The position numbers and the translations under genes are program-made. The notes beneath the pieces were generated by a model. The model did not search any database, was not told the origin of the DNA, and was given only the letters and a program-made list of their open reading frames with translations. 64,000 nucleotides of DNA from assembly GCF_044324875.1 (NCBI RefSeq), contig NZ_CP172185.1. One strand, 5' to 3'. Each line of letters opens with the position of its first letter. Position 1 is the first letter of the stretch. This document shows, piece after piece, positions 10,682 through 26,309 of this stretch. Source of the stretch: Escherichia coli (GTDB lineage: Bacteria; Pseudomonadota; Gammaproteobacteria; Enterobacterales; Enterobacteriaceae).

Positions 10682-11037
10682 GCACTCTCCTTGAGTTTTA
10701 TGCAGGTGTTAATTAGCGGGCAATTGTACCCTGGTTAAGCCTCGGGTGGCAGCATCAGGTCTTGTATGGAAAAGCATATCTTTGTAAAGCGGAGGTAATT
10801 GCTGGCCTTCAGGCGTGGGCAAACCGCGGCAAGTGGCGAACGAGTTAATATTTGCGTAGCGAAAATATTTAAAAATTGATTTAAATCACATTAACCAGGA
10901 TTCTCAATGCAACTTCTAAATTAATCCAGATCAATAAATGGTGAATTATCATATGTAATGTGATCTATGTAGGATCATTTGTTACTCCAATGTAGGTATA
11001 TTCGTCACGTTTTTATAACCATAACGACGGAGCGGAT

Positions 11038-21762: not shown

Positions 21763-23658
21763 ATGGCAGGGATATATCGCTGCATTTTGCTGTTGATAGT
21801 TGGGCTTTTTTTCTCTTCGTTGAGTTATCCGAAAAACACGGAGATCCCTTTTTATGAAGAAGGGATCTCGCTCTTTGATGTTGAAGCCACTCTGCAACCG
21901 GATGGGGTGCTCGACATCAAAGAAAATATTCATTTTCAGGCGCGAAATCAGCAGATTAAGCACGGATTTTATCGTGATTTACCACGACTCTGGATGCAGC
22001 CTGATGGGGACGCTGCACTGCTGAACTATCATATTGTTGGCGTCACCCGTGATGGTATTCCTGAACCCTGGCATCTTGACTGGCATATCGGGTTAATGAG
22101 TATTGTCGTGGGCGATAAACAACGTTTCTTGCCTCAAGGCGACTATCATTATCAAATTCATTATCAGGTTAAAAATGCTTTCCTGCGTGAGGGAGATTCA
22201 GATCTGTTAATCTGGAACGTGACTGGTAACCACTGGCCGTTTGAAATCTATAAGACCCGATTTTCACTCAAGTTCCCTGATATCGCGGGTAATCCATTTA
22301 GCGAAATCGATCTCTTTACTGGAGAAGAGGGCGACACATATCGAAATGGCCGCATCCTTGAGGACGGAAGAATTGAATCCCGCGATCCGTTTTATCGTGA
22401 AGATTTCACGGTACTCTACCGCTGGCCTCACGCTTTACTTAGCAATGCCCCGGCTCCACAAACGACGAATATTTTCAGCCATCTTCTTTTACCCTCCACG
22501 TCATCGTTGTTAATTTGGTTTCCGTGTCTATTCCTGGTTTGTGGATGGTTATATCTCTGGAAGCGCAGGCCGCAATTTACGCCGGTAGATGTGATTGAAA
22601 CCGATGTCATTCCGCCAGATTACACGCCCGGCATGTTACGTCTCGATGCGAAGCTGGTTTACGACGATAAAGGTTTTTGTGCCGATATCGTAAATCTGAT
22701 TGTGAAAGGCAAAATTCATCTGAAAGATCAGTATGACAAGAACCAGCAAATCCTGATTCGTGTTAATGAAGGCGCGACCAGAAATAATGCGGTATTACTG
22801 CCCGCAGAGAAGTTATTACTGGAAGCGTTATTTCGTAAAGGCGATAAGGTCGTTCTTACGGGGAGACGCAACAGAGTCTTACGCAGTGCATTTTTACGGA
22901 TGCAGAAATTTTATCTGCCGCGTAAAAAGTCTTCGTTTTACCGGCCTGATACGTTTTTGCAATGGGGCGGAATGGCGATATTGGCGGTCATTCTCTATGG
23001 TAACCTGAGTCCCGTAGGTTGGGCAGGAATGAGTCTGGTTGGCGATATGTTTATTATGATCTGCTGGCTTCTTCCTTTTTTATTTTGTTCCCTTGAGCTT
23101 TTGTTTGCCCGCGATGATGACAAGCCTTGCGTTAATCGTGTAATCATCACTTTGTTTTTACCGCTGATTTGTTCAGGCGTGGCCTTTTACTCTCTCTATA
23201 TCAATGTCGGAGATGTATTCTTTTACTGGTATATGCCAGCGGGTTATTTTAGCGCTGTTTTCCTGACCGGTTATCTCACTGGCATAGGGTATATTTTTCT
23301 GCCAAAGTTTACCCAAACTGGGCAGCAACGTTATGCCCACGGTGAAGCTATCGTTAACTATCTTGCGGGTAAAGAGGCAGCAACACACAGTGGGCGGCGG
23401 CGGAAAGGGGAAACACGGAAACTGGATTACGCGTTGTTAGGTTGGGCGGTCTCGGCAAACCTTGGCAGAGAATGGGCAGCACGTATCACCCCATCACTCA
23501 CAGCGGCTGTTCGCGCCCCGGAAATTGCCCGTAGTGGCGTTTTGTTCTCATTACAGATGCACCTGAGTCTGGGGGCCAATACCAGTTTGTTGGGGCGAAG
23601 TTATTCCGGTGGTGGTGCTGGCGGCGGGGCGGGTGGCGGAGGCGGTGGTGGCTGGTAA
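21763..23658 (+). CDS. yciQ: Large membrane protein YciQ (DUF2207)
   Basis: 631 aa. N-terminal signal/anchor, central and C-terminal TM clusters, Gly-rich tail GGGAGGGAGGGGGGGW. Confidence 0.9.
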   Translation: MAGIYRCILLLIVGLFFSSLSYPKNTEIPFYEEGISLFDVEATLQPDGVLDIKENIHFQARNQQIKHGFYRDLPRLWMQPDGDAALLNYHIVGVTRDGIPEPWHLDWHIGLMSIVVGDKQRFLPQGDYHYQIHYQVKNAFLREGDSDLLIWNVTGNHWPFEIYKTRFSLKFPDIAGNPFSEIDLFTGEEGDTYRNGRILEDGRIESRDPFYREDFTVLYRWPHALLSNAPAPQTTNIFSHLLLPSTSSLLIWFPCLFLVCGWLYLWKRRPQFTPVDVIETDVIPPDYTPGMLRLDAKLVYDDKGFCADIVNLIVKGKIHLKDQYDKNQQILIRVNEGATRNNAVLLPAEKLLLEALFRKGDKVVLTGRRNRVLRSAFLRMQKFYLPRKKSSFYRPDTFLQWGGMAILAVILYGNLSPVGWAGMSLVGDMFIMICWLLPFLFCSLELLFARDDDKPCVNRVIITLFLPLICSGVAFYSLYINVGDVFFYWYMPAGYFSAVFLTGYLTGIGYIFLPKFTQTGQQRYAHGEAIVNYLAGKEAATHSGRRRKGETRKLDYALLGWAVSANLGREWAARITPSLTAAVRAPEIARSGVLFSLQMHLSLGANTSLLGRSYSGGGAGGGAGGGGGGGW

Positions 23659-24744: not shown

Positions 24745-24765
24745 TTTAAGATAAGTATAAAATAA

Positions 24766-24786
24766 AGGCCCTGCGGGGCCTTTTCT
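24766..24786 (+). terminator. Rho-independent terminator after rluB
   Basis: aggccc-tgcg-gggcct followed by tttcttc, 22 nt after the rluB stop. Confidence 0.75.
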
Positions 24787-24913
24787 TCATTTGAAGCATG
24801 ATAAATAGTCGCAGTATTTTAATTTAATTTCATACTTGCTTATGAATAATACCCGGAAATAGCCACATTACTATTTAATTATCTGAGATAAACTCAACGT
24901 CAAGAGGTGGGTT

Positions 24914-25936
24914 ATGATTAGATATAGTGGAATATTTCTATCGCTGTTAATGCTTTCAGGTTGTGCAACTGAAGCATTGAAAAACGAACAAGCTGAAACT
25001 GTTATTACTGCGGGTAACAAAGCAGTAGCGGCGAATGCAAGTTTCTTTAAACAATACTATGCTTCTCGTGAAAACTTCCTTGTTAATTTTTATGCGACTA
25101 ATCCGGATTGTGCACCTCGACCAGATTATGAGGTAGTTATTGAAAACAGTACCAGTGATGAGTCATTATGTCAGCAACCTGGAGATAAGCACAAAAAATC
25201 TCAAGAAGATCTTTTTATTACAAAGATAGTCGCTACTGAAAAAGAAAGATTGCTGGCTTCTATGGAAATCATTAGCAGTATGAGTTCTTATGTCGAACTT
25301 TTGAATGAGGATTTAGATGTTAAAGACAGCAAACAGTTCATATTGCTTAAACAAGCTCTGGATCACGCGAATAATGCGGGGGCACTTCTGGGCATCAATG
25401 ATGGTGGAACATTAACAAAATCTGCAGCAGCGGTTAAAGATTTAGTGGTTTATTTCAATGGGTTGTATAATACAAGGGTAAGCGCAGGGAATATAGGTAG
25501 TACGGTAAATAATCATTGGCAAAGAATAAAAAATGATCTAACTGATATACGAAACGATATCGCGACAAAAGGTAAACAAACTGGAAGAAATACCTTTGCG
25601 ACGGTACATAATAATCTCGTTTATTACAATGCCTCCTTAAAAAAAGGAGGAGGTAATGAATTTAAGACATTGAAGAGCAGACAAGAATTCCTGGCTGCGA
25701 TTATCAGTATTAATGAAACACGTCTTCGTGCAGCAGATCCAGCTATTCCAGCAATACAAGCACTGAACTCATTTCTTGACGAGGGGAATCACCTTAAGGA
25801 TTTATACACTAATAAAATACGCACAGCGGCTGAACAAAAAAGGCTAAATGAAATATTACGCGCACAGGTCATTAGTGGGTTAAAGGCGTCTGAGGGGCTG
25901 GCAAAACTACTTATTGCCAGCGGAATAATGTTATAG
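24914..25936 (+). CDS. Hypothetical lipoprotein, 340 aa, predicted mostly alpha-helical; family unknown
   Basis: A 1 kb open frame in stop-rich AT-rich DNA. SD gaggtg lies 6 nt upstream of the ATG. The N-terminus MIRYSGIFLSLLMLSG|C has a lipobox L-S-G-C (Cys17 codon at 24962-24964) with Ala at +2. Two further Cys residues (66 and 86). Confidence 0.85.
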   Translation: MIRYSGIFLSLLMLSGCATEALKNEQAETVITAGNKAVAANASFFKQYYASRENFLVNFYATNPDCAPRPDYEVVIENSTSDESLCQQPGDKHKKSQEDLFITKIVATEKERLLASMEIISSMSSYVELLNEDLDVKDSKQFILLKQALDHANNAGALLGINDGGTLTKSAAAVKDLVVYFNGLYNTRVSAGNIGSTVNNHWQRIKNDLTDIRNDIATKGKQTGRNTFATVHNNLVYYNASLKKGGGNEFKTLKSRQEFLAAIISINETRLRAADPAIPAIQALNSFLDEGNHLKDLYTNKIRTAAEQKRLNEILRAQVISGLKASEGLAKLLIASGIML

Positions 25937-25948
25937 GAGGGGCTTTTT

Positions 25949-26257
25949 ATGAACGATGTACAAAACCGTAGAATATTGGCATTACTTGATATGCTGTATA
26001 ATACTCTGGGCAACAAAACCACATGCAAGGTTTGTCATAAATATTTTATCCTTATCCTCACGGTGATGAACAATCTGACGATTAACTACGGTACTGAAAC
26101 TTCGCCAGAGTTAAGCGGAATCAGTTATGAAGATGCCAATGCGTTAATTACTGAACTGATATTATTTATTGAAGATGTTGACGCTGAGAATCATGAAGCA
26201 TATCCGGGACATTTGAATGAGATTAAACGGATTCTGAGTTTTGCTATTGCCGCTTGA
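25949..26257 (+). CDS. Hypothetical small acidic protein, 102 aa, no signal peptide, CxxCH motif; family unknown
   Basis: ATG lies 8 nt after a perfect AGGAGG (25935-25940) that overlaps the ORF1 stop, with a 12-nt intergenic gap, so it is co-transcribed. A hairpin follows at 26272-26306. Confidence 0.72.
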   Translation: MNDVQNRRILALLDMLYNTLGNKTTCKVCHKYFILILTVMNNLTINYGTETSPELSGISYEDANALITELILFIEDVDAENHEAYPGHLNEIKRILSFAIAA

Positions 26258-26271
26258 ATATAATTATGATT

Positions 26272-26306
26272 AAAGCACCTCAAGAGGCGATCTTTTGAGG
26301 TGCTTT
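26272..26306. terminator. Long hairpin between cassette ORF2 and btuR (likely bidirectional terminator)
   Basis: aaagcacctcaaga...tcttttgaggtgcttt gives a stem of about 13 bp with a 2-nt bulge. It ends 3 nt before the btuR stop codon. Confidence 0.7.
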
Positions 26307-26309
26307 CAC

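Follow-up and report, generated by a model that had tools for sequence, protein, structure and literature searches.

A 64,000-nucleotide stretch of the Escherichia coli chromosome (the window; coordinates count from its first letter) carries, inserted between the convergent core genes rluB and cobO, a cassette of two genes. The first, open reading frame 1 (ORF1), encodes a predicted outer membrane lipoprotein with a conserved frame and a highly variable, cysteine-bounded loop; the second, ORF2, encodes a small protein that is predicted to be cytoplasmic. Here we describe the cassette, the family to which its lipoprotein belongs, and the evidence on which we tentatively suggest a role in exclusion or defence at the cell envelope. 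The features of the locus are as follows.

24745..26309, plus strand: accessory island of 1,565 bp, with 36-40% guanine plus cytosine (GC) in the GC profile, taking the place of the entire rluB-cobO spacer.
24764..24783, no strand assigned: GC-rich hairpin upstream of the cassette, from the terminator scan, with an 8-bp stem, five G-C pairs, and T-runs on both strands.
24784..24913, plus strand: AT-rich leader and presumed promoter region, with a Shine-Dalgarno sequence, GAGGTG, at 24904-24909.
24914..25936, plus strand: ORF1, lipoprotein precursor of 340 amino acids (aa); RefSeq WP_000622028.1, "hypothetical protein."
24914..24964, plus strand: putative type II signal peptide (residues 1-16) and lipobox L-S-G-C17, from pattern matches; the Cys is invariant in 40 of 40 family members.
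25109..25171, plus strand: Cys66 to Cys86 loop (Cys66 codon 25109-25111, Cys86 codon 25169-25171); both are invariant in 40 sequences.
25121..25243, plus strand: hypervariable segment, residues ~70-110, which contains the modeled β-hairpin 73-77/100-104 and has the top column entropy in the close family.
25935..25940, plus strand: Shine-Dalgarno sequence of ORF2, AGGAGG, overlapping the ORF1 stop codon and lying 8 nucleotides (nt) ahead of the ORF2 ATG.
25949..26257, plus strand: ORF2, 102 aa; RefSeq WP_001000709.1.
26272..26306, no strand assigned: hairpin between the ORF2 and cobO stop codons, an inverted repeat with 15-nt arms (93% complementary) and a 5-nt loop.

The chromosome around the cassette is core sequence, in the order oppB ... 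tonB ... trp operon ... rnm-yciO-yciQ-rluB on one side and cobO-yciK-sohB-yciN-topA ... fabI on the other, and the 1.65-kb cassette region is 100% identical in the isolate AF40. The GC content is ~52% on both sides of the island, compared with 36-40% within it (37% for the island as a whole). K-12 is among the strains with an empty site. At such a site, as found in strain SCU-101, the rluB and cobO stop codons are separated by only 39 bp with its own, different hairpin; the island therefore substitutes for the whole spacer. On the basis of its low GC content and its absence from 77% of complete E. coli genomes, the island is horizontally acquired, foreign DNA, as an initial annotation of the sequence had supposed. 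Neither att-like or flanking direct repeats nor an integrase or insertion sequence (IS) was found for the island, and an Rfam scan for RNA families of the region returned nothing; exchange probably proceeds by homologous recombination through the flanking core genes. The upstream hairpin is a probable bidirectional terminator closing rluB. The hairpin at 26272-26306, which has a short T-run and was not called by the terminator scan, is likewise a probable bidirectional terminator. No strong sigma-70 consensus was found in the leader, where a promoter is presumed to lie; the 169 nt upstream of ORF1 are 97 to 99% identical among allele classes. The AT-rich island is probably silenced by H-NS. 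ORF1 and ORF2 are 12 nt apart and very probably cotranscribed.

ORF1 is a real gene; a chance reading frame was rejected, since ORF1 is annotated in RefSeq, has many homologues, and is under purifying selection. Its N terminus, MIRYSGIFLSLLMLSG-C17-A18, in which the Cys17 codon is TGT at 24962-24964, has the positively charged n-region, hydrophobic core, and lipobox ([LVI][ASTVI][GAS]-C within the first ~35 residues) by which we recognized lipoproteins, and matches two lipoprotein patterns, the PROSITE PS51257 type and G+LPP. All 40 members of the family alignment described below have a lipobox, and 37 of the 40 have Lys or Arg ahead of the Cys. This conservation strongly supports lipidation at Cys17, and the 340-residue precursor with its L-S-G-C17 lipobox, as initially annotated, is confirmed. 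Outer membrane sorting of ORF1 is predicted by the enterobacterial Lol rule, because the +2 residue is Ala and not the retention signal Asp; the same prediction, made initially from one sequence, gains support from the family, where this position is Ala in 31 members, Gly in 7, Thr in 1, and Ser in 1, and never Asp. On the Kyte-Doolittle scale only two places stand out in 19-residue windows, the signal peptide (1.35) and a C-terminal helix of moderate hydrophobicity (1.12), and hydropathy shows no membrane-spanning segment in the mature protein. The protein is basic (isoelectric point [pI] 8.25) and rich in Leu (11.2%), Ala (10.9%), Asn (8.2%), and Lys (7.4%). Both its composition and its lack of a transmembrane segment had been noted correctly. 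The mature protein has exactly two cysteines, 16 to 27 residues apart, in 37 of the 40 members. The disulfide between Cys66 and Cys86, first suggested as something that could form, now appears probable as a conserved periplasmic clasp, the invariance of the pair being a firmer basis than a single sequence.

An AlphaFold2 model of ORF1 built from 15 close homologues was unusable (predicted local distance difference test [pLDDT] score of 50) and was replaced by one based on the 40-sequence alignment (pLDDT, 81; predicted template modeling score, 0.74). The latter contains nine helices and one β-hairpin; helical segments span residues 5-62 (of which 5-17 are the signal peptide), 110-131, 139-159, 169-187, 191-243, 253-272, 278-298, and 305-339. 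The model strongly supports an elongated bundle of approximately nine helices for the mature protein. The earlier description of ORF1 as helical throughout thus holds for the bundle but not for the hairpin, 73-77/100-104, which lies in the Cys66-Cys86 region and overlaps the hypervariable segment. A Foldseek search of the PDB with the model gave nothing significant (best E value, 0.036; template modeling score, ≤0.3), with weak, nonsignificant resemblance to a domain of the HopQ adhesin and to a Borrelia lipoprotein, and a search of viral models (BFVD) gave no match with an E value of <0.01. The modeled fold thus appears to be without an informative known relative. No significant fold match to the α-pore-forming toxins of the ClyA/Hbl/MakA type, elongated bundles with a hydrophobic β-tongue, was found. 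Partial matches of 106 to 175 residues, at 4 to 13% identity, were obtained with the four-helix-bundle ligand-binding domains of Tar/Tsr, TorS, and NarQ and with bundles of the cytochrome b561 type; de novo designed bundles score equally, however, and we take this as a resemblance in shape rather than membership.

Word-indexed searches found 27 close homologues of ORF1, reaching Escherichia and Citrobacter proteins only. When 1.84 billion representative proteins were searched exhaustively with a HMMER profile, 60 matches were obtained, of which approximately 35 are full length (324 to 357 aa) and very divergent. The distant members come from Buttiauxella, Raoultella, Klebsiella, Rahnella, Pantoea, Methylomonas, a metagenome-assembled Chlorobiaceae genome, and high-GC metagenomic bacteria, and all are annotated as hypothetical. 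In the 40-sequence alignment the family aligns end to end with ORF1, at identities down to 14%, and Cys17, Cys66, Cys86, and Tyr126 are invariant. On this alignment, ORF1 founds an unnamed family that is spread over the Proteobacteria and one Chlorobiaceae genome.

Searches of Pfam, NCBIfam, PADLOC, and PHROGs with ORF1, ORF2, and 40 divergent ORF1 relatives returned nothing meaningful. For ORF1, Pfam gave no family at an E value of ≤1, and for the 40 relatives only sporadic weak matches (E ≤ 0.1), none of them to TraT. PADLOC-DB 2.0.0 gave zero matches for ORF1 and ORF2 and only sporadic single-member noise among the relatives; PHROGs gave a match at the level of the signal peptide for ORF1 (E = 0.16, residues 8-31) and none for the relatives; and sequence profiles of the ORF1 and ORF2 families found only coiled-coil or zinc finger noise in the PDB. 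No catalytic motif or enzyme family was detected in ORF1 by the library scans, and, together with the structural searches, these results uphold the initial view that the protein has neither a catalytic motif nor a known family. A confident match to a housekeeping lipoprotein, which had been named as something to look for, was sought and not found; a housekeeping function was also rejected on the ground that 77% of strains lack the cassette. Nothing on the cassette came up in literature searches for the rluB/cobO site, for the two RefSeq accessions, or for lipoprotein defence systems. The family is therefore unannotated in every library searched and absent from the searchable literature. No true plasmid-borne relative was found, either with ORF1, in searches that included PLSDB, or with two distant members. 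The PLSDB "plasmid" records that match ORF1 (CP054249.1, CP054253.1, and NZ_CP134663.1) are chromosomal sequence, with CP054253.1 not inspected directly. One of these is a 4.9-Mb record, and CP054249.1 is a frameshift-rich fragment that includes trpL-rluB-cobO. An apparent E. coli plasmid paralogue, "33% identical," was rejected as a frameshift-ridden chromosomal fragment of the same locus. Mislabeled records of this kind can yield false calls of plasmid-borne genes or distant paralogues.

The distribution of the cassette in E. coli was determined by sensitive blastn over 5,426 complete genomes, with allele classes probed by the variable central region. The cassette is present in 1,234 genomes, nearly always in single copy, and all of the matches examined sit between rluB and cobO. 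The carriers divide as follows.

L002 type: 776 genomes.
L003 type: 425 genomes.
Window type: 33 genomes; the rare allele.
All three classes: 1,234 genomes, that is, every carrier.

The first ~60 residues of ORF1 are identical among the classes, while the center (residues ~70-300) falls to 25 to 60% identity and the hypervariable segment to 25 to 40% between E. coli alleles. The rate of synonymous substitution (dS) follows the same course: it is 0.05 to 0.24 in the first 60 codons, exceeds 1 or cannot be calculated in the center, and the flanks are 97 to 99% identical. The ratio of nonsynonymous to synonymous rates (dN/dS) in ORF1 is 0.1 to 0.5 between alleles, with a peak of 0.36 to 0.51 at residues 61-110, the Cys-loop segment; the loop and hairpin bounded by the invariant cysteines evolve faster than any other part of the protein. 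Between the window and L003 alleles, the last 40 residues of ORF1 are shared, and so is ORF2 (95% identity), with ORF1 centers that are ~50% identical; this shared 3' part shows mosaic recombination within the cassette. One allele class is common to E. coli and Escherichia albertii, and Citrobacter has versions that are 52 to 56% identical, with the partner gene, at the same rluB/cobO site. E. coli thus keeps three ancient allele classes within a conserved frame. These classes, together with the partner gene ORF2 and the β-hairpin with its hypervariable loop, were absent from the initial annotation.

ORF2 is acidic (pI 4.8) and has neither a signal peptide nor a membrane segment, from which we predict a small cytoplasmic partner. 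Its homologues form 15 clusters in Escherichia and Citrobacter, in the same genomes as ORF1, and its dN/dS is 0.16. A C26-x-x-C29-H30 motif (codons at 26024-26038) and H88 are invariant in these genera. The motif and His88 resemble a haem c or zinc site; a c-type cytochrome was rejected, since ORF2 lacks a signal peptide and its Buttiauxella homologue does not keep the His. The 96-aa downstream partner in Buttiauxella is homologous to ORF2 (hhalign probability, 85%; E = 5.8e-6), with only two Cys (in C-x4-C spacing) and several hydrophobic positions retained. In nearly all of the other clades a small gene (88 to 113 aa) also lies directly downstream of the lipoprotein gene, and the partners in Rahnella, Pantoea, Methylomonas, the metagenome clade, and the alphaproteobacteria-like clade could not be linked to ORF2 (hhalign probability of ~1% or less). 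The Buttiauxella partner is thus the only one with demonstrable sequence homology to ORF2 outside Escherichia and Citrobacter. In one metagenomic clade (L027, 7001-10356) there is no small partner, and the lipoprotein gene overlaps a 773-aa gene of an unrecognized family; a Trypco2-domain gene and an AAA_5 ATPase gene follow downstream, a different operon architecture around the same lipoprotein family. Three clades have an extra upstream gene for a membrane protein of 357 to 413 aa, sometimes with overlapping stop and start codons; these membrane proteins showed no demonstrable kinship among themselves and no PADLOC match.

The genomic contexts of several distant relatives include mobile or defence-associated DNA. 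In Buttiauxella agrestis the homologous pair (35% GC) occupies the interval between P2 genes S and V in a P2-like prophage whose GC content is 60%. This position is one of three recognized regions of P2-like phages for morons (nonessential cargo), and the genes carried there generally have no assigned function (PMC6823313); a different hotspot for P2 cargo abounds in antiphage systems (PMC9122126). In Klebsiella variicola the pair adjoins a Hachiman system (HamA, E = 1e-135; HamB, E = 8.5e-279) and an integrase. On the opposite side of the cassette from Hachiman, in the same integrase-bearing island, a gene at L023 2656-4917 encodes a 753-aa protein with no Pfam or PADLOC match, which could be another defence candidate. 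In an alphaproteobacteria-like contig the pair adjoins a Septu system (PtuA, E = 2e-166; PtuB, E = 3e-105) and a Tle1-like hydrolase. A Tle1-like (DUF2235) hydrolase gene is divergent from the operon of membrane protein, lipoprotein, and small protein in two related contigs (L007 1590-2744 and L016 89-1516), and in L016 a 522-aa nonspecific endonuclease is encoded downstream.

Further relatives have as neighbors VapBC, Fic, and a transposase, or a colicin DNase/immunity pair, a TacAT toxin-antitoxin, and IS3; one adjoins an H-NS paralogue, and one lies between two IS elements near a pore-forming colicin. The colicin DNase pair (L025 192-839) is an orphan module, a stand-alone 129-aa colicin/pyocin DNase domain with an 85-aa immunity gene, 2.5 kb upstream of the cassette homologue. 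The colicin-like gene (L015 9419-11107, from Rahnella sp. PCH160) lies ~2 kb from the cassette, past an IS element, and encodes a 444-aa protein with the hydrophobic C-terminal hairpin typical of pore-forming colicins; a 109-aa membrane protein on the opposite strand looks like its immunity protein. Among the ~10 independent contexts sampled, some relatives lie beside defence systems or in a phage cargo slot; the window and Citrobacter loci, between rluB and cobO, do not.

ORF1 and ORF2 make up a genuine, conserved accessory cassette that moves horizontally. For its function we tentatively favor exclusion or defence at the cell envelope, a proposal that we hold to be plausible but still short of probable. 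That the cassette is mobile accessory cargo is indicated by its low GC content, its absence from most E. coli genomes, its presence at the same site in Citrobacter, and the S/V slot of the Buttiauxella prophage. The prophage pair and the Hachiman and Septu neighbors lend circumstantial support to exclusion, and an envelope role in exclusion or defence is further supported by the lipoprotein and cysteine architecture kept throughout the family, by the toxin-antitoxin, colicin, and IS neighbors of other members, by an allele pattern typical of conflict genes, and by the lack of any detected enzyme signature. In the mechanism we envisage, Cys17 would be lipidated via the type II signal peptide and the protein carried by the Lol pathway to the outer membrane, where a disulfide made by DsbA would display the variable loop as a specificity determinant. 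The lipoprotein might then bind either a receptor in the outer membrane, on its periplasmic face, or a foreign macromolecule on its way in, for instance a bacteriocin during translocation or part of a phage tail or ejection apparatus. Entry would thereby be blocked in the manner of Llp, Cor, and TraT, to which the lipoprotein would be analogous in function and unrelated in descent. The three ancient allele classes would reflect an arms race with the blocked agents. ORF2 may have a regulatory role, may help in export or assembly, or may act in the cytoplasm as a second component.

Several observations weigh against this proposal. No relatives were found in 50,697 phage genomes or in IMG/VR, and the link to prophages comes from one species. 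The cassette lies between housekeeping genes, outside any defence island, in E. coli and Citrobacter, and ~10 independent contexts make for weak guilt by association. It is not obvious what a cytoplasmic partner would contribute to blocking at the envelope, and dN/dS is below 1 everywhere, which is no demonstration of positive selection.

Like ORF1, Llp of phage T5 and Cor of phages phi80, N15, and HK022 are predicted outer membrane lipoproteins, nonessential cargo of mobile DNA with no enzymatic motif, and the mode of action proposed for ORF1, binding on the periplasmic side to block entry, would be the same; one member of the ORF1 family also occupies a prophage moron slot. No similarity of ORF1 to them was found, however, in sequence (PHROGs) or fold (Foldseek against BFVD). 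At 340 aa ORF1 is ~4 to 5 times larger than these proteins (~60 to 80 aa), its variable loop is clasped by cysteines on a bundle of helices, a gene for a cytoplasmic partner accompanies it, and the E. coli copies occupy one chromosomal site rather than a phage genome. TraT, with TraS, of F-like plasmids is likewise an outer membrane lipoprotein that works in exclusion, and its gene lies on mobile DNA next to that of a second small protein; in contrast to that system, neither ORF1 nor its 40 relatives match TraT in Pfam, true plasmid-borne relatives are lacking, and TraS is an inner membrane protein whereas ORF2 has no membrane segment. The analogy with Cor, Llp, TraT, or type VI secretion system (T6SS) immunity proteins that was drawn initially receives no support from sequence or fold. 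Among the morons of P2-like phages (old, tin, fun(Z), and orf30 in the S/V slot), the Buttiauxella pair is a low-GC insert exactly in the S/V slot, and other P2 cargo genes are antiphage factors (PMC9122126); the validated P2 defence hotspot, however, is adjacent to cos and not at S/V, and the window copy lies outside any prophage.

The variable, exposed-looking loop would also suit a lipoprotein that interacts with a host, in serum resistance, adhesion, or immune evasion, with host immunity rather than phages driving the alleles (compare Bor/Iss, TraT, and disulfide-clasped helical adhesins). The predicted outer membrane anchor, the Cys-clasped loop on a helical bundle, the ancient, balanced alleles, the faint likeness to HopQ and a Borrelia lipoprotein, and the moron slot, where virulence morons also occur, are all compatible with such a role. 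Members of the family are found, however, in free-living Methylomonas, in Chlorobiaceae, and in soil and water metagenomes, where host immunity is irrelevant; none of the analyses run predicts surface exposure, and the neighbors are defence or conflict genes and not virulence genes. We regard a host-directed function as unlikely. Many T6SS immunity proteins are periplasmic lipoproteins, and ORF1 might instead be an orphan of this kind, neutralizing toxins that competitors deliver into the periplasm (colicins, or lipases or amidases of the T6SS), with alleles that track effector variants. The absence of a catalytic motif, the diversified alleles, the divergent Tle1-like hydrolase genes in two contigs, and the colicin genes near two relatives point in this direction. 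The two Tle1 contigs are closely related, however, and count as one observation in a single alphaproteobacteria-like clade; the cassette has no effector gene next to it in E. coli, Citrobacter, Buttiauxella, Klebsiella, or Pantoea; ORF1 matches no Tli, Tai, or Tsi family; and the cytoplasmic partner is left unexplained. We give orphan immunity a similarly small chance.

The gene order itself, a lipoprotein gene followed by one for a small acidic cytoplasmic protein, mimics that of toxin-immunity pairs. SitA/SitI are polymorphic lipoprotein toxins of myxobacteria, with the same gene order and strong allelic polymorphism, and ORF1 could by analogy be a toxin passed to neighboring cells, for example via vesicles or membrane exchange, with ORF2 as its immunity protein. 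The pairing of a basic ORF1 with an acidic ORF2, the conserved N terminus of ORF1 and its variable remainder, and the retention of a small downstream gene in most clades would fit. Polymorphic toxins, however, carry variable, nonhomologous toxin domains with covarying immunity, and neither was found in this pair: homology of ORF1 is full length across the family, which leaves no swapped-in toxin domain, and Pfam scans detected none. The window and L003 alleles differ little in ORF2 (95% identity) despite ORF1 centers of ~50% identity, so that immunity does not covary with the variable region. One clade, moreover, has no small partner, and no outer membrane exchange system or other route of lipoprotein transfer is known in E. 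coli. A toxin-immunity pair is therefore improbable. The upstream, sometimes overlapping, membrane protein genes of three clades raise another alternative, a periplasmic ligand-binding or signaling lipoprotein whose bundle binds a small molecule in the manner of a chemoreceptor or sensor, in an accessory stress or transport role and in some clades together with the polytopic membrane protein. The four-helix-bundle matches extend over only ~110 residues of ORF1 (of 340) and are of a generic up-down kind, with equal scores for designed proteins; the membrane proteins are not detectably related between clades and are absent in the Enterobacteriaceae; and neither the extreme allelic divergence nor the prophage and defence-island contexts would be explained. 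We consider a ligand-binding function improbable as well.

If the exclusion or defence role is correct, the family would add a large and widely distributed member to a sparse category. The defence systems discovered in recent years mostly target nucleic acids or metabolism inside the cytoplasm, and, to our knowledge, receptor-proximal blocks at the envelope come from only a handful of small phage lipoproteins. The cassette is present in nearly one quarter of complete E. coli genomes, where every copy is annotated as hypothetical and is recognized by no protein family, defence, phage, or structure library; it would then be a strain-variable determinant of susceptibility to phages, and possibly to colicins, with relevance to phage therapy and strain typing. 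A more far-reaching version, which we hold to be less likely, is a new and widespread class of envelope immunity, in which the clasped hypervariable loop of an outer membrane lipoprotein would recognize specific phages or bacteriocins and block their passage across the envelope with the help of a small cytoplasmic partner, the cassettes would spread through prophage slots and defence islands, and frequency-dependent selection in E. coli would maintain three ancient specificity alleles and a null at one fixed chromosomal site. Long-term balanced polymorphism in E. coli is seldom displayed so cleanly in nature as here, by the fixed site, the three classes with saturated synonymous divergence, the intragenic recombination breakpoints, and the frequent null allele.

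Two minor features were seen elsewhere in the window. RefSeq marks a 90-bp remnant of a YkgJ-family cysteine cluster pseudogene, with the N terminus missing, at 10708-10797 between yciC and ompW. The C terminus of YciQ (DUF2207) is a long glycine-rich tail (...GGGAGGGAGGGGGGGW), encoded at 23590-23655, where the local GC content peaks at 0.59.

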